The translations under genes were made by a program, and so were the position numbers. A stretch of 33,181 nt of DNA from Candidatus Bathyarchaeia archaeon (lineage in GTDB: Archaea > Thermoproteota > Bathyarchaeia > TCS64): contig JBEKDF010000030.1 in assembly GCA_050014495.1 (NCBI GenBank), forward strand, positions 1 to 33,181, in the 5' to 3' direction. Under the pieces are notes generated by a model. That model saw nothing but the letters and a program-made list of their open reading frames with translations, searched no databases and was not told the origin of the DNA. Every line of letters starts with the position of its first letter. Within the stretch, counting starts at the first letter, position 1. Below, piece by piece: positions 13,794-33,181 of the stretch.

Positions 13794-13794
13794 A

Positions 13795-16258: not shown

Positions 16259-16265
16259 CAATAGC

Positions 16266-16348
16266 TCACATTCCGATTCCTTCGTAGGAGAGGTACACAT
16301 ACCTCATATCGATGCAGGGTCTTTAAATTTGCACTCCATGGTAGCGCC
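16266..16348 (-). pseudogene. Relic of the 3' end of a second GT4 gene (paralog of 17871-19475)
   Basis: Encodes GATMECKFKDPASI and, after an internal deletion and frameshift, MRYVYLSYEGIGM*. The intact gene has GAALRCEFKDPHSI and MRYINEFYKDLGM*. Confidence 0.8.
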
Positions 16349-16760: not shown

Positions 16761-16765
16761 TCTCC

Positions 16766-17650
16766 TCATCGTAAGATTTCATTTATGGAAAATTTTGATA
16801 CACTTATCACTGAATCCGCAGCTCCATAAGAAATCAAAACCTCATTCCCACGAAGAATAGCCCCACAACTGAACACAACGTTAGGAATAAAGCCATTACA
16901 CTCATAGTCCTCATAGGGCTCAAAAAATGGTGCTTCAGATCTGTATAATATCTTCTCAGGGTTACCCTTCTCAAGCAGCAAAGCACCCAGTCTATAAACC
17001 CTATTCTGATCCACGCCATGATAGATCTGCAGCCATCCCTCATCGATCTCAATTGGCGGCCCAGCTATTCCAACCCTTAAGCAGTCCCAGCTGTTTTTCC
17101 TCGGAGTCGTAACTATTCTCGAATCATTCCAGTTCCGCAAATCATCTGAGTAAGCAATGCATAGATTAGGATCAATCCTATGAAAAAGGACGTACTTCCC
17201 CCTCACCTTAACGGGGAATAATGCGCTGTCTTTGTCCGTGATACCGGGGAATGGGTGGGTCCTTTCATCCCAACACCAATTTTTTTCCAGGAGGTCCTTC
17301 GATTTTATTGAAGTAATCCCAATCTGTGGTGTTTCTGCGTAGGCTGTATAGGTCATGTAGCATCGATCACCCATCACAGTCACTCTTGGGTCCTCTACCC
17401 CCCGTACCTCTGAAGGATTTATCGGCTCAAAAACAGGGTGATCAACCCTTTCATCGATGTGTTGACCATCAGGAGACGACGCGTAACCCAATCGGGAGAC
17501 CATCTCATCCCCCATGGCTCTATATATGAAGTGAACCCTACCTCCGAGCTCGAACATTGCGGGATTAAAGACGAGTTTAGACTCCCAAATATGTTCAGGG
17601 ATTGGTTTCAGTATGGGATTACCTTCGAATCGCTCCATCCCCACCTTCAT
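16766..17650 (-). CDS. GH130-family glycosidase/mannoside phosphorylase (DUF377)
   Basis: Motifs NPILKP, VFNPA, GVEDPRV, DKDSALFP, GPPIEIDEGWLQIYHGV, PNVVFSCG and YGAAD. Confidence 0.88.
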   Translation of the reverse strand: MKVGMERFEGNPILKPIPEHIWESKLVFNPAMFELGGRVHFIYRAMGDEMVSRLGYASSPDGQHIDERVDHPVFEPINPSEVRGVEDPRVTVMGDRCYMTYTAYAETPQIGITSIKSKDLLEKNWCWDERTHPFPGITDKDSALFPVKVRGKYVLFHRIDPNLCIAYSDDLRNWNDSRIVTTPRKNSWDCLRVGIAGPPIEIDEGWLQIYHGVDQNRVYRLGALLLEKGNPEKILYRSEAPFFEPYEDYECNGFIPNVVFSCGAILRGNEVLISYGAADSVISVSKFSINEILR

Positions 17651-17728
17651 CTTAATTTATATTAATAATGATTTGGAATTTTACATTCTAACCAATGTTC
17701 ATTCTTCTAGAGTGCTTATTTCAGAACG

Positions 17729-17866
17729 CTATGTTCTCATCAAAATCGATAGAGATATTTCAGGTATAAGATACGAGATCAATGACTCAGCATATTTTTT
17801 AAATTTACCCCTGCAGGGTCACCCCATCATTAACAAGTGTAGCGCGCGATCTAAATCGGTCAGCAT
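17729..17866 (-). pseudogene. Internally deleted relic of a paralog of the 15215-16258 gene
   Basis: ATG CTG ACC GAT TTA GAT begins 4 nt after the GT4 stop. It is followed by the GCGCGCG tract (17842-17848), then a frameshifted YTC(Y)DGVTLQG(V)NLK.YAESLISYLI...*, which matches FRCYDGITSKGLNQNKGAESTISYYL in the intact gene. Confidence 0.75.
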
Positions 17867-17870
17867 CGTG

Positions 17871-19475
17871 TCACATTCCCAAATCCTTGTAGAACTCGTT
17901 GATGTATCTCATGGCGACGGTAGGCCATATCATTTCGCGGCTGTACTCATACGCTCTCCTCTCATAACTAGCCCTCATCCCATCATCCTTTATGAAGCTG
18001 TTAACATGCTCAGCGATTGAGTGTGGATCCTTAAACTCGCATCTTAAGGCAGCTCCCTGATATATGACCTCCTCTGCGTGGAGAAAAGGAGTAGTTACTA
18101 TGGCTTTCCCCGTGCTGAGTGCGTAGAGCATTGTGCCGCTGCTTATTTGTTCCCTATTCGGATACGGAAGAATGTACGTGTCTGTTGCTTGCAGGAATCT
18201 GATGAGATCGCCCTTATTCAAGAATCGGTTAACGAATCGGACATTCTTTTCAACACCGAGAGAATTCACCAAATCGTACAAGGATTGTCGATAGGATTCA
18301 CCCTCATGTTTCCTCACGTCGGGATGTGTTTCTCCAATAATAATGTAGAGTACGCGAGGTTCAACTGGGATTATCTCCGGCAAAGCTTTGATCGCATACT
18401 CTATACCTTTTCCACTGCTTATGAGGCCAAACGTGGATAATACATACCTATCCTTAAACCCTAAACCCGTCTTCGGCGTCTTACTCTTAAGAAAAGGCAC
18501 ATTTGGGCAGCCATGTGGAATGTACCTAATCTTATCCGGTAAGGCATCATAGCGCTCCTCTAGTATCCTAGACCCAGCTCTAGCAAGAACAACGATCCTG
18601 TAACTAAGCCTGATGACCTCCTTTAGAACCCGCTCCGCATTCGTATTGGGATCTGGGAGGATTGTGTGAAGGGTGGTAATAATGGGCTTCTTCAACTTTT
18701 CCATGAACGTGAGAAGATAATCGCCCCCGTCCCCCCCAAACAATCCATATTCGTGCTGAATATTCACTGCTCTAATACCCGAGCTGTTAATCTTTGAAGC
18801 CACGGCTTTGTAGCTCTCTCGATTCTCCCTCTCTATCTGTAACTTAACTTCCCCGGAGTAATCATAGTATTCCCCCTCATCGTTGATAGCGACAACCACA
18901 GGTGGAGGAAGGACCCCTTGATGGTTAATGGAGTCAACTAGATCAGATGTGAAGGTCGCTATCCCACACTCACGAGGGGGGTAAGAGCTGATATAGGCAA
19001 TAATCGGCTTATCGGTTGCAGTATACGTTACTTCTATATCTCTTCTATTGGATCTCTCCAAGTACGTATCATGTGCAACATTAAGCAGCCTTCTCTCAGT
19101 CGTTAAACCTATCAGTTTCCCCTTTTCTAATACGCCTAGCCTTCGAATATGTTTATCTCTTAATAGATCTATAGCCTCCTTAATAGATTTATTAGACTCA
19201 ATAGATATTAATGGGGAAGACATGATTTCTTCAACACGAGTATCATCGAGGTTCTTCTCAAATTTTAGAACCCTTTCAACTATGTCTCTTTCAGTAGCTA
19301 TACCAACCGGTAACTCATTTTCGGTTATAACCACTGCGCCTACATCGTAGGCAACTAACAGGTCAATCAACCTTGAGACTGATTCATGTCGAGTAATCAT
19401 GGGTGGCTCTAAATTTGTACTACTTAAAACCGGTAAATCGAACAAGATTTTAAAATATGAATCAGAGTTAGCCAT
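17871..19475 (-). CDS. CBS-pair + glycosyltransferase family 4 fusion protein
   Basis: N-terminal tandem CBS domains (VGIATERDIV, VEEIMSSPLISI, IRRLGV). GT4 motifs SYPPRECGIATFT, IQHEYGLFGG, TFGLISSGKGIE, GETHP and QISSGTMLYALSTGKAIVTTP. Confidence 0.88.
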   Translation of the reverse strand: MANSDSYFKILFDLPVLSSTNLEPPMITRHESVSRLIDLLVAYDVGAVVITENELPVGIATERDIVERVLKFEKNLDDTRVEEIMSSPLISIESNKSIKEAIDLLRDKHIRRLGVLEKGKLIGLTTERRLLNVAHDTYLERSNRRDIEVTYTATDKPIIAYISSYPPRECGIATFTSDLVDSINHQGVLPPPVVVAINDEGEYYDYSGEVKLQIERENRESYKAVASKINSSGIRAVNIQHEYGLFGGDGGDYLLTFMEKLKKPIITTLHTILPDPNTNAERVLKEVIRLSYRIVVLARAGSRILEERYDALPDKIRYIPHGCPNVPFLKSKTPKTGLGFKDRYVLSTFGLISSGKGIEYAIKALPEIIPVEPRVLYIIIGETHPDVRKHEGESYRQSLYDLVNSLGVEKNVRFVNRFLNKGDLIRFLQATDTYILPYPNREQISSGTMLYALSTGKAIVTTPFLHAEEVIYQGAALRCEFKDPHSIAEHVNSFIKDDGMRASYERRAYEYSREMIWPTVAMRYINEFYKDLGM

Positions 19476-20206: not shown

Positions 20207-21139
20207 CTAAACCGCATAGGGGTCAAGACCCCTTCTCATCCTCGCAATTGCCCTTGATGAAAATATTCTAAGCACGGTGTACGCAGTCAAAAACACTATC
20301 AGGATTCCTGCAGCAAAGTAGGGCAAATTGTTTGCAAATGTTCCAAATGACCCCGGGTTAAGATAGGCTCCAAGCACAACCCCGGACACCATTAAGGATA
20401 TCGAGATTAGGAACGATAGCTTCCATAATGTCGACTCAGACTGAGAAGCTTTCTTCTTCTCCATGTGCCTCTTGTATTCACCTACACCAAAAACCAGGGA
20501 AGTGCCTAAAACTCCGACAAACAAAGGAACAATAAAGTTGAAGCTAATTGGGGGTTGATAAAAATCTATGAATGTCCTTACTCCGAGCACGGTTAGGATA
20601 TTCATGAACAGGAGAATTGCCGCTGATCCAAAGAAAATGCCGGTATCCAGGATGCCGCCTGAGTAAAATGGTCCATATATCCTTCGCCAAGGCCTAACGG
20701 TGTAATCCGCCATATCCTCAGCGGTTTTTCTGGTGAGCTCAACTGGGTCGTTTTGATACATGTATACCCTAGTTTTGATATCGAATGCAATTTTCTTGCC
20801 ATCGTGATCGTATCTGGCCTTCTTCACCAGCCTTGAGAAGGGATAAAGCCACTCCACTCCACGGTCCTTTGCGGTGTTGAGGCCATCAAGTAGAATATGA
20901 GTGAAGGCACCTACCGCGATGTAAGGGTTAATAAGATAAATGATTCCAATGAAAACGAAGTTGTGGCATAGCGCGCGGTGGAGTTGGTGTTCACGGAAGT
21001 AATCTTTGCTGAAGAAGCCGTACTCCCTATCGATGTCGGGGAGAACTGATCCGATGGCAACAAGCCAAATGATGTCCCACCGCCCAAAGAAGAGAGTTCC
21101 GATTAGCGCGCCAAATATGAAGTGAGTGGGGAGATTCAT
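20207..21139 (-). CDS. Membrane metal-dependent hydrolase (YdjM/DUF457-like) with extra TM helices
   Basis: Motifs TH..G, LPDID, HRALCHN, THILLD and GVEWLYPF; hydrophobic C-terminal half. Confidence 0.8.
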   Translation of the reverse strand: MNLPTHFIFGALIGTLFFGRWDIIWLVAIGSVLPDIDREYGFFSKDYFREHQLHRALCHNFVFIGIIYLINPYIAVGAFTHILLDGLNTAKDRGVEWLYPFSRLVKKARYDHDGKKIAFDIKTRVYMYQNDPVELTRKTAEDMADYTVRPWRRIYGPFYSGGILDTGIFFGSAAILLFMNILTVLGVRTFIDFYQPPISFNFIVPLFVGVLGTSLVFGVGEYKRHMEKKKASQSESTLWKLSFLISISLMVSGVVLGAYLNPGSFGTFANNLPYFAAGILIVFLTAYTVLRIFSSRAIARMRRGLDPYAV

Positions 21140-21249
21140 GTAAATTCACCCATCTGCGATTCGTCAAGGAACTTAGTCAGAAAGTCCAAGGATTTGTTCA
21201 CCCTGACGCACATGCGATAACGGCTCTAAAATTGCTGCGCGTGCTAATT

Positions 21250-21384
21250 TTATTTCTTCTTGATTTTATTTTTCTCTTTTCTAATTTGCTTTTTAATCTT
21301 TTTGGCTTCCTTCTTCAATCCCTTAATTATGGATTTTCCTGTTTTCCCCGCTTTTTTCTCTGAGTTCTTTTTTCCCTTTGGCAT
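21250..21384 (-). CDS. 44-aa lysine-rich basic protein
   Basis: MPKGKKNSEKKAGKTGKSIIKGLKKEAKKIKKQIRKEKNKIKKK*; homologous to 31389-31703 in both promoter and sequence. Confidence 0.7.
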   Translation of the reverse strand: MPKGKKNSEKKAGKTGKSIIKGLKKEAKKIKKQIRKEKNKIKKK

Positions 21385-21433
21385 ATTACATCCAATTTGA
21401 TCTCGGAAGCCACAAATATAAATCCAAACCACC
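21385..21433 (-). promoter_or_regulatory. TATA-box promoter/leader shared with the 31389 gene
   Basis: GGTGGTTTGGATTTATATTTGTGGCTTCCGAGATCAAATTGGATGTAAT-ATG here, versus GGTGGTTTCGGTTTATATTCTAGGCTTTCCAGATAGAATTGGATGCATC-ATG at 31340-31388. Confidence 0.7.
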
Positions 21434-21690
21434 TTGCACGCTTTGTGAGTAAGATCTTTTTCTAATTCCAACCGTATTACTTCTTGGTTCTTCTAAGAAA
21501 GGAGTGGCTGTCTGCGGGTTGGTAAAATCGTGAGGAAGATTATGGAAAGGACAGAGTGGAAGAGTGCGTGTGTTGTAGACGCATCGATTAGAGCTTTGAA
21601 CGGAGACTCTGCGCACATAAAAGAACCATATATCTGCAGCTTTCGAATAATGTATCTCTTATATCATAACTCACACACTGGTTATGTATC

Positions 21691-22221
21691 ATGGAGATAG
21701 AAGCTAAGATTCTTGAAGTCGATCCAATAAAAACAATTGATTATCTTGAACGGATAGGTGCTGTCAAGGTTTTTGATGGAGAGATTTATACTCTTTTTTA
21801 TGATACACCCACAAACGATATCAGTAAGAGGAAAGATTTGTTACGACTGCGTCGAATGGGTAATGAGGTTATTTTAACTTATAAACGGTATATCAGTGAT
21901 GAGAAATTAAAGAGACGTGAAGAATATGAGACTAATATTGGTAACTTAGAGGAAATGGACCTGATTCTTAGATCTCTTGGTTTCCAAGTCACTGAGAAAA
22001 TGATTAAAAAAAGGGTTAGTTTTGAAACCGAAAGCGCTCGAGTAGATATCGACGTTCATTTAGGGAATTATTCATTTATTCCTCCTATACTTGAAATTGA
22101 AGCAAAAGATGAGGAGACTATAAATAAGTTGGCTAAGGGCCTCGGCTTCTCGAGTGAGGATCTTTTAGCATGGGACTTTTTCGAAGTAGCCAAATATTAT
22201 TTAGCTAAAACTCCTAAATAA
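21691..22221 (+). CDS. CYTH-domain protein (class IV adenylate cyclase/triphosphatase-like)
   Basis: Motifs N-terminal EIEAK (ExExK), LRLR, LTYK, REEYE, KKR and LEIE. Confidence 0.88.
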   Translation: MEIEAKILEVDPIKTIDYLERIGAVKVFDGEIYTLFYDTPTNDISKRKDLLRLRRMGNEVILTYKRYISDEKLKRREEYETNIGNLEEMDLILRSLGFQVTEKMIKKRVSFETESARVDIDVHLGNYSFIPPILEIEAKDEETINKLAKGLGFSSEDLLAWDFFEVAKYYLAKTPK

Positions 22222-22354
22222 AAGTTAAAAAATATCCTATTATAACTATCCAATTTTTCAGTGAAATTCACTTAGGGTAATGTTTTTCTGTAATACTTCC
22301 GATAGACAATTCACGTATGTGACGTGATGAAGCGACTTCGTAAGAGGTGATGCA

Positions 22355-24529
22355 ATGGTTGATGAGGCTAAGAGTAGTTATAACAATTTGGATAATAACA
22401 AGGCGGTATTCTCAGACCGTGATTTCGAAGATACTATTCTAAACTTGGATGATCCAAGATTATATATTAACAAAGAGCTTAGCTGGCTCAAGTTACATGA
22501 GAGGATTCTTGAGGAGAGCCGAGATCTTAATCATCCTCTTTTAGAACGTGTAAAATTTCTAGCAATCTGCGGGGGCAACCTCGATGAATTCTTTATGGTT
22601 CGAGTTTCCGCACTAAACAAACAGGTCCTGAAGGGCTCAATTAAAGTGACCATTGATGGTAAGACCTCCCAGCAACAACTTGAAGTTATTCACCAAGAGG
22701 TTTTACCGATCCTCCGGCTCCACGAAGAGGTTTGGAATCACGAACTCCTACCAGAACTCTCGGAGGAGGGAATCCATATTACGAGAGTTGCTGATCTAAA
22801 CGAGAGTCAAAAAATCGCAGTAAGAAAGTATTTTGAGCTTCAAATTTTCCCAACTTTGACTCCTATGGCGATGGATATCTCACATCCATTCCCCTTCATA
22901 AGTAACTTGAGTCTGAACTTGGCAGTAATTTTAAGTGACAAGGAAAAACGTGAGAGGTTAGCGAGAGTCAAAGTGCCAACTGAAATCTTTCCGCGGTTTC
23001 AACATTTACTACTCGAAGAATACGAGGAAGACTTAGATAGATGTGCAGATGATGGTATCACATTACTTTTTCTAGAGGATATCATCGCTTCAAATTTAGA
23101 TCGGTTATTCCCTGGTATGGATATTGTTTCAGTATACCCCTTTAGAGTGACACGTGACGCAGAAGTTGAAATGAGTCTAGACCAGGTTAGTGACCTTCTG
23201 ACTGCTATCGAAGAGAGTATCAAAACACGCCGCTCAGGTAAATGTGTACGTCTAGAAGTCAATAAATCGATGCCGAATTCGCTTAGAAAAGTTTTAATGA
23301 AGAACTTAGAGCTGACACCCGATGCAGTCTTCTCATTCGACGGACCGCTTGGATTCATTGACTTTTGGCAATTATTAAAGATCGATCGCCCAGACCTGAA
23401 GGATGAGCCGTTTCTTCCCTACACACCAAGTGAACTAAGTGAGGGAAGTGATTATTTCAAAGCTATATCAAAGCGAGATTATATTTTGTACCACCCTTAC
23501 GATAGCTTTGATGTAGTGATCAATCTTCTGAAACAAGCCGCTGTCGATCCGGATGTATTGGCAATTAAAATTACCCTTTACAGGATAGATAAGAAGAGTC
23601 CCATCATTGATGCTCTACTTCAAGCAACGCAACATAAGAAGAACGTTACAGCCATCGTCGAATTAAAGGCCAAGTTTGATGAGGAGAATAACATCAATTG
23701 GGGTAAGCGGTTAGAACATGCGGGTGTCCATGTAGCCTACGGTTTCCCAGAACTCAAGGTTCATGCAAAATTATGTCTTATAATCAGAAAAGAGGGGGAG
23801 AGAATAGTCAGGTATAGTCACTTAAGCTCTGGGAATTACAATTCAGTTACCTCTCGAATCTATGGGGACATCGGGTACCTGACAGCTAATCAAGAGATTG
23901 GCGCAGAGGTCAACGATCTATTCAATTATCTCACCGGCTATAGCGAGAAAGATGATTATCGTTACCTTCTAGTGGGGCCGCAGACGCTTAAGAAAGAGAT
24001 TATCAGTCGAATAAATAGGGAGATTGAGAAGCATAAAAAAGAGGGAAAAGGATACATCGCAATAAAAGCAAACAATCTTGAAGAAAAGGACATCATCAAG
24101 ACTCTTTATCAGGCAAGTCAAGCGGGAGTTAGAGTAGACCTGAATATCCGCGCCTTGTGCAGTCTCCGCCCCGGGATTAAGGGCGTCAGCGATAAAATAA
24201 GAGTGACTAGCATCATAGGGCGATTTCTTGAACATTCAAGAATCTTTTACTTCAGAAATGGGGGGGAGGACGATGTGCTGCTTGGAAGCAGCGACCTCAT
24301 GCATAGAAACCTCGAGAAGCGAGTCGAGGTGCTCTTTCCCGTCCCAGATCCACTGTTACGCAAACTCATAATAGAGAAAATATTGAATATTCACTTAAAT
24401 GACACAGTTAAAATGAGGGAGCTGATGAGTGATGGCTCCTGGAAACATGCGAAACCGATCGAAGGTAAAGAACCGATTAATTCACAGCAGTGGCTAATCG
24501 ACCATAAGGGAGATTGGCATTGTGCTTGA
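22355..24529 (+). CDS. ppk1: Polyphosphate kinase 1
   Basis: Motifs NKELSWL, PLLERVKFLAI...NLDEFFMVRV, HPFPFISN, HPYDSF, AIKITLYR, ELKAKFDEENNI, KVHAK, GRFLEHSR and GSSDLMHRNLEKRVE. Confidence 0.96.
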   Translation: MVDEAKSSYNNLDNNKAVFSDRDFEDTILNLDDPRLYINKELSWLKLHERILEESRDLNHPLLERVKFLAICGGNLDEFFMVRVSALNKQVLKGSIKVTIDGKTSQQQLEVIHQEVLPILRLHEEVWNHELLPELSEEGIHITRVADLNESQKIAVRKYFELQIFPTLTPMAMDISHPFPFISNLSLNLAVILSDKEKRERLARVKVPTEIFPRFQHLLLEEYEEDLDRCADDGITLLFLEDIIASNLDRLFPGMDIVSVYPFRVTRDAEVEMSLDQVSDLLTAIEESIKTRRSGKCVRLEVNKSMPNSLRKVLMKNLELTPDAVFSFDGPLGFIDFWQLLKIDRPDLKDEPFLPYTPSELSEGSDYFKAISKRDYILYHPYDSFDVVINLLKQAAVDPDVLAIKITLYRIDKKSPIIDALLQATQHKKNVTAIVELKAKFDEENNINWGKRLEHAGVHVAYGFPELKVHAKLCLIIRKEGERIVRYSHLSSGNYNSVTSRIYGDIGYLTANQEIGAEVNDLFNYLTGYSEKDDYRYLLVGPQTLKKEIISRINREIEKHKKEGKGYIAIKANNLEEKDIIKTLYQASQAGVRVDLNIRALCSLRPGIKGVSDKIRVTSIIGRFLEHSRIFYFRNGGEDDVLLGSSDLMHRNLEKRVEVLFPVPDPLLRKLIIEKILNIHLNDTVKMRELMSDGSWKHAKPIEGKEPINSQQWLIDHKGDWHCA

Positions 24530-26051
24530 GAATAATGAGTCTCTCTGCGCACAGGGAATGAGACAAATAGATGGCCTACTAAACATCCTTGAATACAATC
24601 TTAACAACGCAAAGACTGGTGAAGACATTGAAGATGTTCATCAAAGTAGGGTCACCAGCAGAAGACTGCGTGCGGCCCTTCAAGTGTATAATCCCTGCTT
24701 CGAGAAAGACATTGTTAAACGGTGGAGAGAAGAAGTAAAGAAAATTACAATAAACCTAGGTGAAATTCGAGATATAGACGTACAAATAGGTTACCTCGAA
24801 ACTTTAACCAAGAACTCTGATACCCGCCCAGGAGTCACGCTTCTCTTAGAAAGACACAGGTCTAAGCGTTTAAAACTCCAGTACAAGGTCGAGTCAACAA
24901 TTAGAGACTTCGAAAACTCGGGTATAATGGGGGAAATTAGAGATTACCTGATCAATGTTCACGAGGAGCAGGAGGCATCCATTAAACCTGATACCCCTAC
25001 ACTAAACTTCGTTAGAGAAAACCTCCAGCTTAGATTCTCAGAACTCTTTTCTCTCGAGAAATACATCCATAGGGAAGACGCTGTAAAACGTCACCATCAA
25101 CTCAGAATTGCAGCCAAGAGACTCAGATATGCCCTTGAATTATACCAGGAGCCATACAGGGATAAGATAAAGCCGATGATTGAGACAGTCAAGGGATTCC
25201 AGGATCTGCTCGGCGAGATCCACGACGGAGATATTTGGATCGAATACATCCCCAAAATTACGAGTAAATTATCTCACAAACTACCACGAGGAAAAAGAGG
25301 TTCCACCGTAAAGGATTTGGACCGATTACATAGCCAAATTATCGATAGACGCCACAATTTATATTTGGAATTCTATTCTAGTTGGACTAAGGAAAAGAAT
25401 AATGGCTTCTTTGAGTCTCTTCGAGGCCTCATAATGGGAATACCAGATACTGGAGTAATAACTGAACACAGTAAGACCTTAACATTAGTAAAACAAGTAG
25501 AAGAGAAGTACGACCCTGACCCAAACCACTCTTCTCAGGTAACAAATCTCGCTCTGAGTCTCTTTGATGAATTATCTTGGCTCCACGATCTGAATACCCG
25601 AGACAGGGAATTATTGGAGTACGCCGCGATGCTCCATGATATCGGATGGTTCATCAACGGAGAAGTTCATAGTATTCACTCCATGGATATGATCCTATCT
25701 GACATGGATCTTCCATTCGACAGTTCTACACGCCTAATGGTCGCAAATATCGCCAGGTATCACAATAAGGGTACGCCGAATATTGCTGATGAAAAATATG
25801 CGCTCCTAATGCCAGAAGAGGCATGTAGGGTAAGCAAACTTTCAGCGATACTCAGGGTCGCTGATGGGCTCGATGCCAATCACAGCAGGGTAGTCAAAAG
25901 CCTGAAAGCAAGAGACGACGAGAACTCCATTATACTGGAGTGCTTAACGGACAGCGACTACAGAATGGAAGAGGATGCCATACGCAAGAAGAGGAAACTA
26001 TTCAAGAAGGTCTTCGGGAAACCACTCAGGATAGAGTGGAAGACGGCATAG
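24522..26051 (+). CDS. CHAD-domain protein fused to a Ppx/GppA-type HD domain
   Basis: Two CHAD repeats (VHQSRVTSRRLRA...LGEIRDIDV; HQLRIAAKRLRYALE...QDLLGEIHDGD) followed by HD motifs HSSQVTNLALSLFD, LHDIG, ARYH and LRVADGLD. Confidence 0.88.
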   Translation: MLENNESLCAQGMRQIDGLLNILEYNLNNAKTGEDIEDVHQSRVTSRRLRAALQVYNPCFEKDIVKRWREEVKKITINLGEIRDIDVQIGYLETLTKNSDTRPGVTLLLERHRSKRLKLQYKVESTIRDFENSGIMGEIRDYLINVHEEQEASIKPDTPTLNFVRENLQLRFSELFSLEKYIHREDAVKRHHQLRIAAKRLRYALELYQEPYRDKIKPMIETVKGFQDLLGEIHDGDIWIEYIPKITSKLSHKLPRGKRGSTVKDLDRLHSQIIDRRHNLYLEFYSSWTKEKNNGFFESLRGLIMGIPDTGVITEHSKTLTLVKQVEEKYDPDPNHSSQVTNLALSLFDELSWLHDLNTRDRELLEYAAMLHDIGWFINGEVHSIHSMDMILSDMDLPFDSSTRLMVANIARYHNKGTPNIADEKYALLMPEEACRVSKLSAILRVADGLDANHSRVVKSLKARDDENSIILECLTDSDYRMEEDAIRKKRKLFKKVFGKPLRIEWKTA

Positions 26052-27598
26052 CCAAGGGTGTCGTCGCCTTCATCGATATAGGGTCGAATTCCGTTAGGCT
26101 ATTGGTTGTCCATATTCGTGGCGGCGGATTCACGGTACTACGCGAAGAGAAGGAGACGATTCGTCTCGGCGATCGAGTGTTCTTAGAAGGGTTCCTCAAC
26201 GACCAAGCAATCGAACGTTGTGTTAACACACTAAAAAAGTTCATAAAAATCTCGAAGGGATTCAACGTCGAATCGATCGTGGCAGTAGCCACGTCAGCGC
26301 TTCGAGATGCCAGCAATCAGAAGAAATTCATAAGAACAATCAAGAACAAAGTCGGTTTGGATGTGAATGTCGTCTCCGGAAAGGAGGAGGCGAGATTAAT
26401 CTACCTCGGTGTATCAAGTGACGTAAATTTAGGATCCAAAAACGCGCTCTTTATAGATGTAGGCGGAGGTAGCACTGAGCTAATAATAGGTAACCAATAT
26501 GGACACAGTGTCATAAGTAGCCTGAACGCGGGCGCAATAAGGTTAACGAGTCTTTTCCAGAAACGTCCCTGGGATAAGGAAATAGAAAACGACACCTATC
26601 AGAATATGTGCAGTTACGTCAGAGCAGAACTTATGAAATCGGAGTTAAGGCATCGACGTAAGATATCGAACTCATTTGGTAGCTCCGGCACCATCATCAA
26701 TTTGGCCGAAATGACTAAAGGGAATAAGCAAAACGAGGCTTTATCGCTAAAAGTGAAGGATCTGAAGAAATTAACCGATGTACTTCGTGCTCTTCCACTA
26801 GATGAGCGAAAAAAATATCCTGGTATAAACCCGGATAGAGCAGATATCATTGTCGGAGGCGCAGCAATTCTTGAGACCGTTATGGATGAACTTCATGTCC
26901 AAGAGATCAAAGTGAGCAAGAGGGGCATAAATTACGGTCTCCTCGTCGACTATATGTCGAAGATACATGGAGGCGCCACATCTAAGCATGTGGTGAGGGA
27001 GCAGAGTATTCAGGACATGGCCAATACCTACCATGCAAACAACGCCCATAGCCAGAACGTGACACGTTTATCTCGAGAACTATTTGATAGCTCACGGAAA
27101 TCCGGTATTAACAAGCTTGGCGAGCAGGAGAAGAAACTTTTAAAATATTCCTCACTTCTCCACGATGTTGGTAACGCAATAGCATATAGGGATCATAACC
27201 TTCACGGAGAGTATATAATTAAGAACTCCGAGTTGCTCGGCTTCGACCAGTCGGAGATTAGTGTTATCGCGTCCAATGTTAGATTTCATATGAAACGGCT
27301 ACCCACACGAAAAGATCTTAATGAGACTGGATTATCAAAAAACAATCGCAAAGTTGTCAAGATTTTATCAGCTTTCTTAAGAATGGCTGAGTACTTGGAT
27401 CGCAGCCACCTAGGTCACGTGAAAAGAGCTGAGATTGTTGCTGGCGATGGAGGAAAGGCAAGTCTTCTACTCTACGCCGATGAAGATATTGAAGTTGAAC
27501 TTTGGGGACTGAAATTTATACAGACTTGCTTTTTATCAGTATTCGGTATGAAGTTAAAAGTAGATGTTCTACCAACTCAACTTATTGATAGTAATTAG
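26036..27598 (+). CDS. ppx: Exopolyphosphatase Ppx/GppA with C-terminal HD domain
   Basis: Motifs IDIGSNSVRL, ATSALRDA, SGKEEARLIY, DVGGGSTE, RADIIVGG and LLHDVG. The start is uncertain; GTG 26036 is preferred over 25940. Confidence 0.92.
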   Translation: MEDGIAKGVVAFIDIGSNSVRLLVVHIRGGGFTVLREEKETIRLGDRVFLEGFLNDQAIERCVNTLKKFIKISKGFNVESIVAVATSALRDASNQKKFIRTIKNKVGLDVNVVSGKEEARLIYLGVSSDVNLGSKNALFIDVGGGSTELIIGNQYGHSVISSLNAGAIRLTSLFQKRPWDKEIENDTYQNMCSYVRAELMKSELRHRRKISNSFGSSGTIINLAEMTKGNKQNEALSLKVKDLKKLTDVLRALPLDERKKYPGINPDRADIIVGGAAILETVMDELHVQEIKVSKRGINYGLLVDYMSKIHGGATSKHVVREQSIQDMANTYHANNAHSQNVTRLSRELFDSSRKSGINKLGEQEKKLLKYSSLLHDVGNAIAYRDHNLHGEYIIKNSELLGFDQSEISVIASNVRFHMKRLPTRKDLNETGLSKNNRKVVKILSAFLRMAEYLDRSHLGHVKRAEIVAGDGGKASLLLYADEDIEVELWGLKFIQTCFLSVFGMKLKVDVLPTQLIDSN

Positions 27599-27624
27599 TA
27601 TAAATCGCGGAGTATAATTGAAAC

Positions 27625-28449
27625 TTGATCAAAATGGACATACATACTAAGAGATACCACGTTGAACCGGGACAAAAAATCAAGATAGAAGAATGGGACC
27701 CCGGAGATACCTCAGGCTTCGAAGGTGAGAAAGAACAATCAGTAGATGTGATGCAAGTAAACAAGAATAGTCTTGAGTCACTTCAGGAGATCCTTTTCGC
27801 CGAGCATGAACATAAGATACTCATAGTTCTCCAAGCCATGGACACTGGCGGAAAAGACGGCGTTATCCGACGCGTGTTTGAAGCAGTAAATCCACAAGGT
27901 GTAAGAGTTGTAAATTTCAAAGAACCGTCTATAAATGAGCTTGATCACGACTACCTCTGGCGCGTTCATGCCCAAGTTCCAATAAAAGGTGAGCTGGTCA
28001 TTTTCAACCGTAGCCACTACGAGGATGTCCTAATTGCCAGGGTACATGAACTCGCACCAGCCGATGTAATCGAGAAAAGGTATCAGCAGATAATGGACTT
28101 CGAAAGAATGCTGTCGGAGGAGGGTTCAACGATAATGAAGTTCTTTTTAAACATAAGTTACGACATGCAGAAAAAGCGACTACAGGATAGACTTGCTGAT
28201 CCAACAAAACAGTGGAAATTCAATATTAACGATCTAAACGAGCGGAAAGATTGGAAAGCATATATGAAGTCCTATGAAATTCTCTTAAGTAAAACCAGCA
28301 CAGATTGGGCCCCTTGGTATATTATACCCTCGGATCATGAATGGATTCGCGACTTGTTAATTTCGAAGATAATAATAAGTACTCTTGAGAAATTGGATAT
28401 GCATTATCCAAAGCTTAAACAGGATCCAAAAACAATTGAAATTTCCTAG
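27625..28449 (+). CDS. ppk2: Polyphosphate kinase 2 family (class III-like polyP:nucleotide phosphotransferase)
   Basis: Motifs LQAMDTGGKDG (Walker A), VNPQG, HDYLWR, FNRSHYEDVL, WKFN..D..ER and APWYIIPSD. The start is TTG 27625 or ATG 27634. Confidence 0.93.
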   Translation: MIKMDIHTKRYHVEPGQKIKIEEWDPGDTSGFEGEKEQSVDVMQVNKNSLESLQEILFAEHEHKILIVLQAMDTGGKDGVIRRVFEAVNPQGVRVVNFKEPSINELDHDYLWRVHAQVPIKGELVIFNRSHYEDVLIARVHELAPADVIEKRYQQIMDFERMLSEEGSTIMKFFLNISYDMQKKRLQDRLADPTKQWKFNINDLNERKDWKAYMKSYEILLSKTSTDWAPWYIIPSDHEWIRDLLISKIIISTLEKLDMHYPKLKQDPKTIEIS

Positions 28450-28722
28450 ATTCAAATCAGTATGTCACTTGGATGATTAATGTGAATTTTCTACTCTGGT
28501 GGCTTATTTTTCGATTACATTCGTTTTATGCGCATGCATTTTATATCTAATTCCTTAGAATAACTTGCCTCCAAAGTGTACACGCGTGTTTTAACACTGA
28601 ATTGGCTCAAATCATAATATATGTAAACGTTCACTTTTGGATGTGATTAAACTGACAATTATTCCTCCTGTTTATAGCCTATCTTTCTACTATCAATTAA
28701 GGAAGAATTAAGCGCATTCCAA

Positions 28723-31281
28723 GTGATTTCATTGAGTACATCTGACAGTGAGAATCTACAACCATATTGGAGTGTCCCAACTTCTGAAGTTTTTCAGCGA
28801 CTTCAGGCGACGTCAAAAGGTCTGACAGAGGATGAAGCACGAAATCGGCTTAAAAAATACGGCTCCAATCTTCTGACGCCTAAGAAAAAATCAGATGCGC
28901 TTACGCTTCTGCTTACTCAATTCAAGAGTCCGATTATCCTCATACTAATCTTTGCAGGTGGATTGTCGTTCTTTCTTGGGGATGCGGTGAATGCCCTAAT
29001 CATCCTCGTTATTATCTTAATCAGTAGTCTACTGGGCTTCTGGCAAGAAAGAGGTGCAACAAACGCTGTCGAAAAGTTACTTGCAATCGTGCAGACCAAA
29101 GCGACCGTATTTCGCAATGGAGATCAAAAGGAGATTCCAGCTAATGAGATTGTGCCTGGGGATCTCATAGTTCTCAATGCTGGAGACCTGATCCCTGCTG
29201 ATTCACTGATCGTGGAATCAAAAGATCTATTCGTAAACGAAGCATCCCTGACGGGTGAAACTTACCCCAGTGAGAAATCAGTAGGGGTTCTGACAGTGGA
29301 AACACCACTTAGTAAGCGGACAAACAGTCTTTTCATGGGAACGAGTGTAGTCAGTGGCAACGGGCAAGCAGTGGTATTAGGAACAGGATCGAGGACTGAG
29401 TTTGGCAAAGTCTCAGAGCGTTTGAAACTTAGATCTCCAGAAACAGAGTTCGAACATGGTGTCAGACATTTTGGATATTTACTAATGGAAATTACACTCG
29501 TATTAGTGGTCGCTACATTCGCCATTAATGTATATTTTGCACGCCCCGTTTTAGAATCACTTCTCTTTTCCCTAGCGCTCGCGGTTGGGCTAACGCCACA
29601 ACTGCTGCCGGCGATTATCAGCATTAATCTAGCGCAAGGTGCCAAAAAGATGGCACTAAAAAAAGTAATCGTCAAGCGGTTGGCATCCATTGAAAACTTT
29701 GGAAGTATGAACGTCCTATGCTCCGATAAGACCGGTACTCTGACAGAGGGCGTGATAAAGGTACAATCCGTGCTTGATCTCAAAGGTAGTGAAAGTGAAA
29801 AAGGGCTTCTCTACGCTTTTCTCAATGCCTCTTATCAGACGGGTTTCACGAATCCAATTGATACGGCGCTATTAACTGATGAAACGATTCAAAATCGTCA
29901 TTTTGATATGTCTGGTTACGTAAAACTGGATGAGGTCCCTTATGACTTCATTCGTAAGCGACTAAGTGTCCTCGTATCTAAGAATAGTACAGGTCTGATG
30001 GTGACAAAAGGTGCTTTGCAGAACGTGATCGATGTTTGTTCCTCTGTTGAATCTTCGGATGCAAAGATTATAGGAATTGCCGAGGAAAATAAACCGATCC
30101 AGGAACGCTTTGAAGAGTTAAGTAACAAAGGTTTTCGCGTTCTTGGTATAGCTTACAAGAATATTGGTTCTGTTAAGCTAATCACAAAAGATAGTGAAGC
30201 TGATATGACTTTCTTGGGATTCCTCGTTCTCTTTGATCCTATTAAAGCTAAGATTATCGATACTATTAGCGAGCTGAAATATCTCGGTATTTCATTGAAG
30301 ATTATAACAGGTGATAATCAGCTTGTAGCAGGTTTCCTTAGTCAACAAGTCGGGTTCCCGACGCCAAGAATTCTCACAGGTTCAGAACTTCTTAAGCTTA
30401 GTGATGAAGCGCTGCTTGGAAGAGTGAATAGTGTCGAAGTTTTTGCGGAGGTTGAGCCCAATCAAAAGGAGAGAATCATCATTTCGCTCAAGAAAGCCGG
30501 CAATGTGGTAGGATATATGGGAGATGGGATCAACGATGCCTCGGCTCTCCATGCTGCCGATGTTGGTCTCTCCGTTGATAGTGCCGTTGATGTTGCCAAA
30601 GAATCAGCTGACATCGTGCTGCTTGAAAAGGACCTAGGCGTTCTCGTGCAGGGGGTAAAAGAAGGCAGGAAAACCTTCGCTAACACTCTAAAGTATGTAT
30701 TCATGGCAACTAGTGCCAATTTCGGAAATATGTTCAGTATGGCAGGTGCATCCCTCTTTCTGACGTTTCTTCCTTTACTACCTAGGCAGATCCTTCTTAC
30801 CAATCTAATGACAGATTTTCCAGAGACAACCATTGGCACGGATAACGTAGATGTTGAAATGGTTGAACTACCTCGACGCTGGAATGTGGCGTTTATCCGA
30901 AATTTCATGATTACTTTTGGCGTCTTAAGCTCAGTATTTGATTATCTAACATTTGGTGTACTCCTTTTCATCATGCATAGCTCTGTCGATCAATTTAGAA
31001 CTGGTTGGTTTGTGGAATCGGTTATCTCAGCATCACTTGTTGTACTAGTCATCCGGAGCCAGCGTCCTTTCTTCAAAAGTACGCCTGGAAAATTTCTGCT
31101 GTTCACCACCTTGGTGATTGTTGGCGCAACCTTAATCCTTCCTTTTACTCTACTCGGATCCCTTTTCGGATTTAGCCCTCCGCCAATGACATTTCTTTTA
31201 GCAACGGCGATAATCGTAGTGTTGTACATTATCTCGGGAGAAGTAGTAAAAGGAATCTTTTACAAGATCGTAAAATTTTGA
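28723..31281 (+). CDS. mgtA: Mg2+-translocating P-type ATPase (P3B)
   Basis: Motifs LTGET, AVGLTPQLLP, DKTGTLT, PYDFIRKR, KGA, TGD, GDGIND, SANFGNMFS and FRTGWFVES. Confidence 0.88.
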   Translation: MISLSTSDSENLQPYWSVPTSEVFQRLQATSKGLTEDEARNRLKKYGSNLLTPKKKSDALTLLLTQFKSPIILILIFAGGLSFFLGDAVNALIILVIILISSLLGFWQERGATNAVEKLLAIVQTKATVFRNGDQKEIPANEIVPGDLIVLNAGDLIPADSLIVESKDLFVNEASLTGETYPSEKSVGVLTVETPLSKRTNSLFMGTSVVSGNGQAVVLGTGSRTEFGKVSERLKLRSPETEFEHGVRHFGYLLMEITLVLVVATFAINVYFARPVLESLLFSLALAVGLTPQLLPAIISINLAQGAKKMALKKVIVKRLASIENFGSMNVLCSDKTGTLTEGVIKVQSVLDLKGSESEKGLLYAFLNASYQTGFTNPIDTALLTDETIQNRHFDMSGYVKLDEVPYDFIRKRLSVLVSKNSTGLMVTKGALQNVIDVCSSVESSDAKIIGIAEENKPIQERFEELSNKGFRVLGIAYKNIGSVKLITKDSEADMTFLGFLVLFDPIKAKIIDTISELKYLGISLKIITGDNQLVAGFLSQQVGFPTPRILTGSELLKLSDEALLGRVNSVEVFAEVEPNQKERIIISLKKAGNVVGYMGDGINDASALHAADVGLSVDSAVDVAKESADIVLLEKDLGVLVQGVKEGRKTFANTLKYVFMATSANFGNMFSMAGASLFLTFLPLLPRQILLTNLMTDFPETTIGTDNVDVEMVELPRRWNVAFIRNFMITFGVLSSVFDYLTFGVLLFIMHSSVDQFRTGWFVESVISASLVVLVIRSQRPFFKSTPGKFLLFTTLVIVGATLILPFTLLGSLFGFSPPPMTFLLATAIIVVLYIISGEVVKGIFYKIVKF

Positions 31282-31339
31282 AGTAATGGCTAAGTCTCCG
31301 TAGCAACCTTTTGCATGTATTTAATTTTTATATCTAAGA

Positions 31340-31388
31340 GGTGGTTTCGGTTTATATTCTAGGCTTTCCAGATAGAATTGGATGCATC
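31340..31388 (+). promoter_or_regulatory. TATA-box promoter/leader of the Lys-rich gene
   Basis: TTTATAT at about 31351; homologous to 21433-21385. Confidence 0.7.
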
Positions 31389-31703
31389 ATGCCAGAAGAA
31401 AAAAAGAGCTTAAGTGAAAAGGCGGAGCACGCAGGAGCAGTTGTAGTAAACGGAGTTAAGACGGGCGCTAAAAAAGCAGGTGAAACCGCGGAGGCCTTCG
31501 GAGAAGGAGTAAAAAAAGAGATGGAAAATGTAGAGGAAAAATCGAAGGAATCAGAAGAATCCGTATTTGAGGGCTTGAAGAAAGAAATTAAAAAACTTAA
31601 GAAGGAAATTAAGAAAGTTAAGGGTAAAAAGAAGAGCAAGAAGGGTAAAAAGAAGAGCAAGAAGGGTAAAAAGAAGAGCAAGAAGAATAAAACGAAAAAG
31701 TAA
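31389..31703 (+). CDS. 104-aa Lys/Glu/Ser-rich protein with a polybasic tail
   Basis: MPEEKKSLSEKAEHAG...EGLKKEIKKLKKEIKKVKGKKKSKKGKKKSKKGKKKSKKNKTKK*. The start ATG 31389 was chosen by alignment with the 21384 paralog. Confidence 0.75.
   Translation: MPEEKKSLSEKAEHAGAVVVNGVKTGAKKAGETAEAFGEGVKKEMENVEEKSKESEESVFEGLKKEIKKLKKEIKKVKGKKKSKKGKKKSKKGKKKSKKNKTKK
31620..31682 (+). repeat. 3 x 21-bp perfect tandem repeat encoding KGKKKSK
   Basis: AAGGGTAAAAAGAAGAGCAAG at 31620, 31641 and 31662. Confidence 0.95.
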
Positions 31704-31907
31704 ACACGAGGTTAAGGTAGAATCTAAAGAAAGAACCGAAGAATCGGCTACTAACTTATTAAAACTGAGTATGCGCATTTAAGATACAAATTAGGAGCGC
31801 ACTCATCTTCGGGATACGAACATTAAGTCGAAGACGTGTTTCTCATATGCTATGCGCGTATTGCATCCTTATGTTAACGCGTGTGTGTGCATGTCTGAGA
31901 CCCGATT

Positions 31908-31925
31908 AACCGATAATTATCGGTT
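31908..31925. promoter_or_regulatory. Perfect 18-bp palindrome abutting a TATA-like box; candidate operator
   Basis: AACCGATAATTATCGGTT, overlapping the start of TTTATTAA about 30 nt upstream of ATG 31954. Confidence 0.55.
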
Positions 31926-31953
31926 TATTAACTGCGAAATATATCATCCAGCT

Positions 31954-32385
31954 ATGAGTAAAAATGATAGAAATGAAGCACCAGAACTAGCAGAGATTCG
32001 CCGCGAGTTAAATCAGGTGGCTTGGCCATCAGACGTTGACAAGTTGATTAATCTCATCAACGTCTATAAAGACCACGCCGTTGATGCCGCACGTATACGC
32101 ACTGCTCCGCCGATAATAAGTGCGGTTGTATTCTCAAACCTAACTAATTCGAGCGTAAAGATAACTTGGATGACTAACGAGCCTGGTGACAGCGTAGTAA
32201 AGTATGGGGTCACAACGGCGACAGGAAGCATGGTATCCGATCCTGCGATGGTTACAAGTCACTCTTTGACCCTTACCGGACTCGAGGCTGGGACGACTTA
32301 TTATTATTTAGTTGCCTCAACAGATTCGGTTGGAAATAGATCGGTCGATAGCAATAGTGGTATCTACTACACTTTTAAAATCTAA
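31954..32385 (+). CDS. Fibronectin type III / purple-acid-phosphatase-N-like domain protein
   Basis: APPIIS...SVKITWMTNEPGDSVVKYG...HSLTLTGLEAGTTYYYLVASTDSVGN. The probable start is ATG 31954; the upstream ATG lies in an RY tract. Confidence 0.8.
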   Translation: MSKNDRNEAPELAEIRRELNQVAWPSDVDKLINLINVYKDHAVDAARIRTAPPIISAVVFSNLTNSSVKITWMTNEPGDSVVKYGVTTATGSMVSDPAMVTSHSLTLTGLEAGTTYYYLVASTDSVGNRSVDSNSGIYYTFKI

Positions 32386-32398
32386 AAGCTGTGATGCG

Positions 32399-32436
32399 CG
32401 CGCGCATGAATAAATTGAATAATTTACATGCGCGCG
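32399..32436. other. Bulged hairpin built on two RY tracts
   Basis: CGCGCGCATG-[AA]-TAAATT-GAAT-AATTTA-CATGCGCGCG. Confidence 0.75.
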
Positions 32437-32481
32437 AATAAAAAATGCGATTGAGATTCTTAGAATCTTGGAGTTGAAGAA

Positions 32482-32883
32482 ATGTCGAGTTACATGAAGA
32501 AGGTGTCGGCACATCTGTTTTTGAGGAGAGTTTTTCGTGTGCTAGATGATGTAGCGAAAGAAGAGAATGTAACTTTATTGGAGCATGTTTCGAATATGAT
32601 CAAGAGTGGTGAAACACTAGTGTATTACGCGGATAGTGAGAAGTATAGGGGACAGATTGATGATCTGTTTGGGCGTTCGAGTGTGCGCTTTTTATTGGGT
32701 AGATCTAAGGGGTATTTTAACACTCCTGAGAGTGATATTCGGGAAGCTTTGCCTTGGTGGATGGATAGAATTAAGGAAATTAATCCTGATCTTAACTATG
32801 TCATTGTGGTGGAGCCTAATGGACAGGAATGGTTCGTTCAGATGTGCATAGATTTGACTAAGATTTGCAAAGGCTATATTTGA
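32482..32883 (+). CDS. Hypothetical protein (133 aa)
   Basis: ATG-initiated ORF with protein-like composition and GGAG upstream, flanked on both sides by RY tracts. No family recognised. Confidence 0.6.
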   Translation: MSSYMKKVSAHLFLRRVFRVLDDVAKEENVTLLEHVSNMIKSGETLVYYADSEKYRGQIDDLFGRSSVRFLLGRSKGYFNTPESDIREALPWWMDRIKEINPDLNYVIVVEPNGQEWFVQMCIDLTKICKGYI

Positions 32884-33181
32884 ATGGGTGCGCATGCGCT
32901 AAGTTGAGGCTCTACATATATCACACCCTACGAGGGAAGGGGCATTTGGTCTATTGGTCTAGGCTGCTCATGAATTTGGCTCTTTTCTTATATTTACAGA
33001 GAGCTGCGCGCACAAACGTATCTTAACAAGCCTAAACAATTATTTTCATCTTAGTTCTGAGCGTGCGTACGCTCAAGTTAATATGTACGCGTTTCTTCAT
33101 TTTGAATCAGTATGAAAATAATGTATAAACTAGTCTACATGAGTATCCTTCTCCTAGGGATCATCATCGCGTTAGCCCAAT

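Follow-up and report, generated by a model that had tools for sequence, protein, structure and literature searches.

The polyphosphate (polyP) operon of this Bathyarchaeia archaeon, which has been detected in peat metagenomes, probably lies inside an island of general-stress genes, and the two Lys-rich genes that bracket it, L and R, are best read as island paralogs of a multi-copy family and not as parts of the operon. The window, i.e. the whole analysed stretch of 33,181 nt, contains six large open reading frames (ORFs), all on the plus strand, in the order CYTH, ppk1, CHAD-HD, ppx, ppk2, and mgtA. L (44 aa) and R (104 aa) flank this block and face outward. Profile searches matched the genes of the block to their families and confirmed the co-oriented layout given in the preliminary description. 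The assembly is backed by a 10,102-nt contig from run X10, which spans positions 21283-31327 and stems from a strain with about 98% identity, and X14 contigs bridge L and CYTH (21049-22074) as well as mgtA and R (31191-31941). In the X10/X11 strain, the long contig ends at 31327, and a separate piece with 88% identity covers 31379-31643. RNA is listed for none of 24 runs. An Rfam search of the window gave no match, and a scan of the window for promoters and terminators with a sigma-70 model, which is ill suited to an archaeon, stayed at chance level.

Polyphosphate kinase 1 (724 aa, 22355..24529) reaches 815 bits against TIGR03705, above the curated cut-off of 466, and contains the catalytic motifs of PPK1. 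Its ORF is overlapped by 8 nt by that of a 509-aa protein (24522..26051) in which CHAD is fused to an HD/Ppx-domain-III module (PF05235, PF21447, PF01966), and which matches both CHAD chains and exopolyphosphatase chains in the PDB. Most of its relatives (mostly ~770-815 aa) have a middle metallophosphoesterase domain that this protein lacks, and the CHAD-metallophosphoesterase-HD form is found in most polyP operons of the class. The long-form Ppx/GppA exopolyphosphatase (26036..27598; PF02541, PF21447, and motifs) has its longest ORF from 25940, but comparison with the closest polyP cluster, that of genome G016 from the same genus, makes a GTG at 26036 the most likely start, with a 16-nt overlap with CHAD-HD. 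Its score against TIGR03706 is under the cut-off (268 versus 307), so that the enzyme may have either Ppx or GppA activity. Polyphosphate kinase 2 (27634..28449) is of the TIGR03709 type (369 bits, cut-off 247); its longest ORF begins at 27625, the most likely start is the ATG at 27634, and the gene was not firmly placed in the ppk2 tree (0.77). For ppk1, a quick tree was calculated. The stand-alone CYTH/TTM protein (176 aa, 21691..22221) matches PF01928 and TIGR00318 (69 bits, cut-off 58) and has an N-terminal ExExK motif. It is likely a triphosphatase; class IV adenylate cyclase, a function suggested by the TIGR00318 match, was ranked lower because a characterised archaeal CYTH protein is a triphosphatase (PMC8233210) and because of the gene context.

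A polyP operon is conserved in 53 of the 401 sampled genomes of the class. At 29 other Bathyarchaeia ppk1 loci, taken from 29 of the 52 ppk1-positive genomes, the neighbours include CHAD in all 29, ppx in 25, CYTH (upstream of ppk1) in 24, and ppk2 in 15. The polyP enzyme genes form a real cluster, as had been proposed. The core operon lacks a Lys-rich family gene at 28 of these 29 loci. The host genome has a second ppk1 on contig C33 (81% identity), with no Lys-rich family gene on that contig; matches to CYTH, CHAD-HD, ppx, and ppk2 are confined to the contig of the window.

Judged from its sequence, the core cluster is a polyP operon of a known kind, with Ppx/GppA and CHAD co-oriented with and tightly linked to ppk. 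Prokaryotic polyP loci described before include the CHAD loci of Chlorobium tepidum and the Sulfolobales (10.1101/567040), the ppk-ppx operon of M. acetivorans (PMC6821655), and the sixA-ppx-PPK3-CHAD operon of S. acidocaldarius (PMC12995831). As in known operons, ppk1, ppx, and CHAD are co-oriented in the window, and CYTH/TTM is associated with CHAD. In contrast to them, CHAD is fused to HD/Ppx-III, CYTH is encoded separately, and the cluster lacks sixA. Our literature search found no description of a polyP operon in Bathyarchaeia and no account of polyP metabolism for this class, whose archaea are abundant in sediment and peat; the 15 of 25 Bathyarchaeota rows covered in a table of PMC12995831 give no PPK. 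PolyP operons are well known already, and one in Bathyarchaeia is a modest addition, but its conservation in the class is relevant to how phosphorus is stored in anoxic soils. From family membership, PPK1 would make polyP out of ATP, the CHAD-HD protein would coat it, Ppx would trim it, the CYTH enzyme would hydrolyse the short end product, and PPK2 would use polyP to regenerate nucleotides.

The sixth gene of the block encodes an MgtA-type (IIIB) P-type ATPase of 852 aa (28723..31281), with 797 bits against TIGR01524 (cut-off 611) and with DKTGT and TGE motifs. It starts after a gap of 273 nt from ppk2. The proximity of mgtA to ppk genes recurs, at 3 of the 29 other ppk1 loci, and mgtA is named among PPK2-associated genes in Table S3 of PMC12995831. 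In a FastTree analysis, the mgtA of the window clusters (0.92-0.99) with nine relatives from stress islands, which have 76-80% identity. None of these nine has ppk genes in the fetched flanks, eight have island markers beside them, and three are followed after 0.2-3.3 kb by a Lys-rich family gene or fragment whose strand agrees with that in the window. We take mgtA to be an island gene; its product would import Mg2+, and a second use as supplier of the polyP counter-ion is plausible.

L (21250..21384, minus strand; 45% Lys, net charge +18) is the single-unit form of the family, and R (31389..31703, plus strand; 36% Lys, net charge +20) consists of two amphipathic units with 11-residue periodicity, followed by a poly-Lys tail. 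For both, the longest ORF (73 aa and 120 aa) begins too far upstream. L and R are related, as had been noticed before, with 48% over 42 aa between L and the second unit of R and with a common TATA-box/leader motif, which is also found upstream of other paralogs. This 23-nt motif occurs twice in the window, once 5′ of each Lys-rich gene (21400..21422, minus strand, for L; 31351..31373, plus strand, for R), and 0 times in 100 shuffles, a count that is no independent test because the motif was read off the paralog alignment and built partly from these two sites. It suggests that each gene is driven by its own promoter.

The host genome contains 14 family matches on eight contigs, i.e. on seven besides that of the window. 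Away from polyP genes, contig C76 carries copies of L (77% identity) and R (73%) together with one that is frameshifted. Among the 401 sampled genomes, 45 have the family, including 27 of the 348 in which ppk1 was not found; it was not found in 35 of the 52 ppk1-positive genomes. In only one of these 52 (one of 17 with both), genome G233, is ppk1 found within 10 kb of a family gene, which is a short, tail-less form beside its usual radical-SAM/CBS/DUF5670 neighbours. The 17 genomes that possess both genes have them on separate contigs in 14 cases, and some of the ppk1 matches are near contig ends. No family member was found at 80 further, mostly bacterial, ppk1 loci, in the four genomes with close ppk1 relatives outside the class, or within ~14 kb upstream and ~20 kb downstream of the G016 cluster. 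The preliminary description had viewed the Lys-rich proteins as dedicated scaffolds of a self-contained granule module and had named their independent occurrence as the outcome that would speak against it; independent occurrence is what these distributions show, and neither a restriction to polyP loci nor a general co-location with ppk clusters held up. Per genome, the family and ppk1 co-occur more often than expected (17/52 versus 27/348, odds ratio 5.8; 16/35 versus 10/69 within family f11 of genomes; 0/16 in families f17 and f26). This enrichment is confounded by kinship and genome size, yet it is not explained away and remains a point against placing L and R with the island.

The family tracks other neighbours, i.e. 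ydjM-like, radical-SAM, CsbD, and MgtA genes. The gene downstream of L, co-oriented with it, encodes a YdjM-like membrane protein (20207..21139, minus strand; PF04307), an island marker, and of the ten closest full-length relatives of this gene, seven lie no more than 10 kb from a family gene, including the one in G012, a genome of the same genus in which ppk1 was not found. Pfam identifies recurrent neighbours as CsbD, DUF5670, MscL, MscS, a radical SAM/DUF3463 protein, and CBS proteins; a further one is an ORF judged Hsp20-like by its sequence. Two points speak against assigning the family to the island: the markers were chosen from the family neighbourhoods themselves, and none of them is present at 14 of the 20 loci examined in genomes without a ppk1 match. 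We infer that the conserved CYTH-ppk1-CHAD/HD-ppx-ppk2 operon came to lie within such a stress-gene island.

The sequences of L and R point in the same direction. Both satisfy the three hydrophilin criteria (Gly >6%, GRAVY < -1, mean hydrophilicity >1, for which the Hopp-Woods scale was assumed; PMC4190154), as do 17 of 22 members. The best hydrophobic-moment angle is 96-101 degrees in all 22 aligned members (shuffle p ≤0.005), identity within the family peaks at lags of 18 and 22 and at other helical lags, and similarity to the group 3 LEA 11-mer (PMC6559209) exceeds that of shuffles for R (p 0.003) and L (p 0.01). Like group 3 LEA proteins and hydrophilins, the family is small, very hydrophilic, rich in Gly (>6%), amphipathic with an 11-residue period, multi-copy, and located beside CsbD-type general-stress genes. 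Unlike group 3 LEA proteins, it has no LEA Pfam match, is far more basic, and has only two to six repeats. L and R have no match in Pfam or NCBIfam, including LEA families at E ≤0.001, and no LEA family is among the first 25 of the 43 families listed for the 22 members (E ≤1, all weak). Across the family, these databases gave weak coiled-coil-type matches only, with phasin in 4 of 22 (best E 0.002) and the sll1863 stress family in 1 of 22. A plasmid search with R gave no match, and the best hit in the ESM Atlas (0.80) was at chance level. L and R are predicted to be disordered in solution and to fold via their 11-residue repeats as amphipathic helices on anionic surfaces, either membranes or polyanions, and would protect the cell in osmotic, drying, or starvation stress. 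The small amphipathic proteins found in this survey form a family without annotation.

It is unlikely that the tailed proteins are instead histone-H1-like DNA/RNA binders, with an amphipathic part that oligomerises and a basic tail that compacts nucleic acid in stationary phase, and with an incidental position beside the operon. The net charges of +17 to +20 of L, R, and the C76 copy of L, the low-complexity Lys/Gly/Ser tail, and the dispersal of paralogs with their own promoters are compatible with such a role, as are the heptad-spaced Leu/Ile/Val residues at R 63-77, where an otherwise low-confidence AlphaFold2 model (helix 8-79, pLDDT 63, pTM 0.25) has its highest confidence. However, most members have no tail and a modest positive charge (typically +3 to +9), histone-like families were not matched, and the neighbours are membrane and osmotic-stress genes.

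A function in polyP granules that was acquired within this lineage is also improbable; it would be the role given in the preliminary description, but taken on recently and not as part of a conserved module. The family would have gained its poly-Lys tail after the arrival of the operon, and R, together with L, would bind polyP and condense or tether its granules. A long tail (at least 11 Lys per 20 residues) was seen, among the resolved genomes, only in the host, which has the full operon and a second ppk1, and where two tailed copies bracket the operon; 59 distinct members elsewhere reach at most 10, and the comparison across genomes is therefore largely one of relatives without the tail. Within the host genome, the four ORFs with the highest Lys density all belong to the family. 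A PASK motif is defined as a 20-residue stretch that includes one Lys and is at least 75% D/E/S/K (PMC12345225), and the term PASK-like applies to R (best fraction 0.90, the highest of 11,281 ATG-started ORFs of the genome), but not to L (0.65). R is a strong candidate, by composition, for polyP binding. The C76 copy of R also reaches the threshold, whereas most members are below it, and the score of R comes from Lys and Ser and not from acidic residues. The histone-H1-like AlgP organises polyP granules in Pseudomonas aeruginosa as a spacer (PMC9239181) and, like R, has a helical N-terminal part followed by a repetitive Lys-rich tail. Unlike AlgP and PhaF, the (KGKKKSK)n tail of R contains no Pro or Ala and no KPAA repeats (one Pro per protein), and R and L are one-third to one-eighth of the size of AlgP, with no sequence match. 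The enrichment per genome would favour this function. Points against it are the near-identical tailed copies on C76, the family-type promoter motifs of L and R, the operon of G016 in a genome whose members have no long tail, the most Lys-dense relatives in G011 (88% complete, ppk1 not found), and the demonstration that the binding site can differ from a formal PASK motif (PMC12345225). We regard with similar doubt the fuller scenario that a granule scaffold arose in the peat lineage from a LEA-like stress protein, with a repeat-expanded tail, two copies around an acquired operon, and a CHAD-HD adaptor without the phosphoesterase domain. If R were a scaffold, it would be a small, easily expressed model for archaeal granule organisation, and co-option would make it the first archaeal polyP condenser, seen during co-option.

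Least probable is that L and R came to bracket the block through rearrangement, with the homologous promoters and 5′ ends of the paralogs serving as recombination sites when the operon and mgtA were joined, and with L as a functionless, decaying truncation. In favour of this, the block has inverted homologous segments on its two sides, paralog-like joints occur in other runs, and frameshifted or truncated copies lie on C76 (beside a transposase fragment), C63, and C71, but L is intact in two copies (87% DNA identity, 44 aa each) with metagenome relatives (P0051 cluster), and neither terminal repeats of a mobile element nor target-site repeats stood out at the block ends.

Locus searches of genome and metagenome contigs with the Lys-rich proteins gave no confirmed match, probably because confirmation suits low-complexity queries poorly, and this is no sign of absence. 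For the tailed homologs P0031-P0039, a cluster look-up yielded no accessions. The tail of R is encoded by a 21-nt tandem repeat (31620..31696, plus strand), which has one unit fewer in a contig from another run.

The window, one entire contig of an archaeal assembly of 3.1 Mb (92 contigs, 96% complete, 7.5% contamination), contains six large ORFs, all on the plus strand, which match the families CYTH, PPK1, CHAD + HD/Ppx-III, Ppx/GppA, PPK2 (TIGR03709) and MgtA. What we take to be the catalytic motifs are present in these enzymes, e.g. VHAK of PPK1 and EEARLIY of Ppx are visible in the translations. The genes ppk1 and CHAD-HD overlap by 8 nt, CHAD-HD and ppx by 16 nt, and ppk2 starts 35 nt after ppx; the gaps are wider from ppk2 to mgtA (273 nt) and from mgtA to R (107 nt). 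R (31389-31703, plus strand, 104 aa) and L (21250-21384, minus strand, 44 aa) encode Lys-rich proteins, the second unit of R being the counterpart of L, and share a TATA/leader motif. Other sequencing runs back the gene order: a contig of 10,102 nt spans positions 21283-31327 with 143 differences, and contigs join L to CYTH and mgtA to R. Among the runs listed, peat metagenomes are the main source of DNA near-identical to the window; contigs of seven runs were compared with it. The ORFs, family matches and contigs from other runs thus confirm the layout of the preliminary description, i.e. six co-oriented genes with a Lys-rich gene at each end. The G+C content is 42% in the operon, 50% in the left part of the contig and 49% in the genome; values of 41-44% begin at position 15,000 and continue up to the end of the contig, so that the low-GC region is broader than the polyP gene cluster.

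The operon is of a known kind, in a little-studied archaeal class; the host is assigned to Bathyarchaeia because the ppk1 locus of a same-genus relative is labelled Ca. Bathyarchaeota. One operon holds ppk and ppx in M. acetivorans (PMC6821655), the gene order in Sulfolobus is sixA-ppx-PPK3-CHAD (PMC12995831), CHAD binds polyP and is located within polyP clusters (10.1101/567040; PMC10892726), an archaeal CYTH protein was shown to be a triphosphatase (PMC8233210), and mgtA is among the genes listed as PPK2-associated (PMC12995831, supplement 2). Literature searches gave no description of a polyP operon in Bathyarchaeia, and no relevant title on mgtA together with granules; archaeal PPK-neighbourhood figure panels, which are outside text search, may show such a cluster. 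Neither PMC6864096 nor PMC12995831 mentions one in its main text, and the accessible part of a supplementary table of the latter gives PPK as absent in 15 of 15 Bathyarchaeota rows, of 25 in total.

Of 60 sampled relatives, one has a detected ppk1 gene, as have 53 of the 401 genomes of the class, including that of the window (52 above the cut-off). The fractions are 1/70 in the window's own genome family and 35/104, 12/59 and 4/16 in three others, and this patchiness suggests transfer or loss. A quick tree built from 47 PPK1 sequences groups the window gene with a second copy from the same genome and that of a same-genus relative (G016) (100), with two Thermoplasmatota sequences as loose neighbours (84) inside an archaeal clade (97-99). 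The second ppk1 is solitary (C33:28233-30416, L008), 81% identical to the first, and is followed at about 0.7 kb by a fragment of a DDE transposase; a profile search found no gene of the Lys-rich family, i.e. that of L and R, on its contig. With this exception, the polyP genes of the genome match the window alone. An ORF for a SixA-like histidine phosphatase, a usual associate of PPK1, lies away from the operon (C63:5102-5548, L006), about 2 kb from Lys-rich family copies.

Apart from that of the window, 52 genomes are ppk1-positive; flanks of about 10 kb were inspected in 29 of these, picked mostly for long contigs. CHAD follows ppk1 at 29/29 loci, and ppx is present at 25, CYTH at 24, ppk2 at 15, mgtA at 3 and a Lys-rich family gene at 1. 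Judging from lengths and motifs, the CHAD protein at most loci has about 770-815 aa and a middle calcineurin-like phosphoesterase, which was Pfam-checked for one locus and assigned by length and motif for the remainder. Such CHAD-metallophosphoesterase-HD proteins (e.g. L179:11627-13951) follow ppk1 in Bathyarchaeia and Thermoplasmatota. The 509-aa CHAD-HD protein of the window is without the middle domain, as is the apparently frameshifted form of G016. A literature search on the three-domain protein or a CHAD-HD fusion gave no relevant title; the three-domain protein is possibly a polyphosphatase bound to granules and so far uncharacterised.

The polyP-granule module that had been proposed is upheld in part: its enzymes belong to a conserved operon, but dedicated Lys-rich scaffolds are not supported. 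Close linkage to ppk clusters across genomes is rare: the Lys-rich family, which has no name in Pfam or NCBIfam, is present in 17 of the 52 other ppk1-positive genomes, and lies within 10 kb of ppk1 in 1. In two single-contig genomes the two genes are 0.9 and 1.2 Mb apart, and in 14 they are on separate contigs. No member was detected at 80 further ppk1 loci (0/80) or in genomes outside the class with close ppk1 relatives (0/4), and 20 family loci from ppk1-negative genomes have no polyP gene.

Both brackets are explained by neighbours from a presumed general-stress island, i.e. ydjM with L and mgtA with R. Ten full-length relatives of the ydjM-like gene downstream of L were retained at ≥46% identity, a threshold fixed after the score gap was visible (one partial 68% match and 18 weaker rows were left out, none on a contig with a Lys-rich match); for 7 of the 10, a Lys-rich family gene lies at 0.14-7.1 kb. 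One of the seven is from a same-genus relative (G012), in which family genes are followed by ABC1 kinase, CsbD and ydjM in a stretch without polyP genes. The window mgtA has nine relatives at 76-80% identity, with which it clusters in a tree, and seven at 64-65%. The former set has ppk genes nearby in 0/9; in 3/9, a Lys-rich family gene, or a fragment of one, closely follows mgtA on its strand. Eight of the nine are near ydjM, CsbD, DUF5670, Hsp20-like, MscS, radical-SAM or GH130 genes, markers that were drawn from these same neighbourhoods, in related genomes that are not independent. The markers are absent at 14 of the 20 family loci from ppk1-negative genomes. In the 64-65% set, ppk2 is adjacent in 5/7; the mgtA-ppk2 contact is a recurrent, already known pairing, here with an island-type mgtA. 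The genome has five MgtA-class ATPases above the TIGR01524 cut-off (two on C3, and one each on C6, C7 and the window). Taken together, we consider it probable that a polyP operon of known kind lies inside a stress island, and that the small Lys-rich genes of the island are bystanders.

The family is present in 45 of the 401 genomes, mostly as a core of 45-60 aa (profile search). The strongest hydrophobic moment is at 96-101 degrees in 22/22 aligned members, 17 of which are hydrophilin-like by published criteria (PMC4190154), and the similarity of R and L to the group 3 LEA 11-mer (PMC6559209) exceeds that of composition-matched shuffles. AlphaFold2 predicts a long helix with low confidence. 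The family resembles LEA/hydrophilin proteins in composition and periodicity, but no LEA family is among the Pfam matches listed for it. Most plausibly, the Lys-rich proteins act like LEA/hydrophilin stress proteins, on which literature searches for Bathyarchaeia gave no relevant title.

A lineage-specific recruitment of a Lys-rich protein as a polyP scaffold seems unlikely, but several results run counter to the bystander reading. In AlgP, a Lys-rich protein that organises granules is already known (PMC9239181). R has the highest PASK score (0.90; definition in PMC12345225) of 11,281 ATG-started ORFs, of which 14 pass, the four most Lys-dense ORFs of the genome are all family members, and the long tail is absent in 59 members from other genomes; however, metagenomic homologs (P0031-P0039 and P0099-P0104, some on contigs of 12-57 kb) are also tailed. 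Per-genome co-occurrence exceeds the expectation, with the family in 17/52 ppk1-positive versus 27/348 ppk1-negative genomes, and in 16/35 versus 10/69 within one genome family (f11), figures that kinship and genome size confound, but it is not seen in two ppk1-rich families (f17 and f26, 0/16). Because so basic a tail probably binds any polyanion in vitro, only selectivity and localisation can decide the role of R.

Returning to the Lys-rich genes, the genome has 14 profile matches to the family on 8 contigs. C76:7296-8388 (L002) contains one copy each of L (77%) and R (73%) as well as a frameshifted one, with a transposase fragment alongside, and further clustered copies are at C63:7328-7810 and C71:7799-7945; some of these clustered copies are frameshifted or truncated, and several have the common TATA/leader motif. 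Other copies adjoin CsbD or DUF5670. Some small contigs could stem from contamination; in six runs, paralog-type contigs have depths like that of the polyP cluster, which weakly supports a single organism. In five genomes (G147, G216, G342, G349 and G391; L264, L267, L273, L274 and L279), the core is joined to a C-terminal CxxC...CxxC zinc-ribbon-like segment, and in four (G054, G049, G266 and G383; L021, L023, L270 and L278) a short family gene directly adjoins mscL.

A 341-aa ORF at 398-1423 (minus strand) gave no match in Pfam and NCBIfam searches. The right side of the island appears variable: contigs of two other runs (X10 and X11) omit 1,137 nt (31878-33014), so that a fibronectin-III ORF (31852-32385) and a 133-aa ORF (32482-32883) are gone; part of this segment is nevertheless present on further contigs of these runs. 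Positions 12007-19475 contain sugar genes, i.e. a PIG-L deacetylase, two GT4 glycosyltransferases (one with CBS domains), and GH100/GDE-like, GH76-like and GH130 phosphorylase genes, possibly for compatible-solute or mannoside metabolism belonging to the island. In G342, a Lys-rich family gene adjoins GH130, GH76-like and GT genes.
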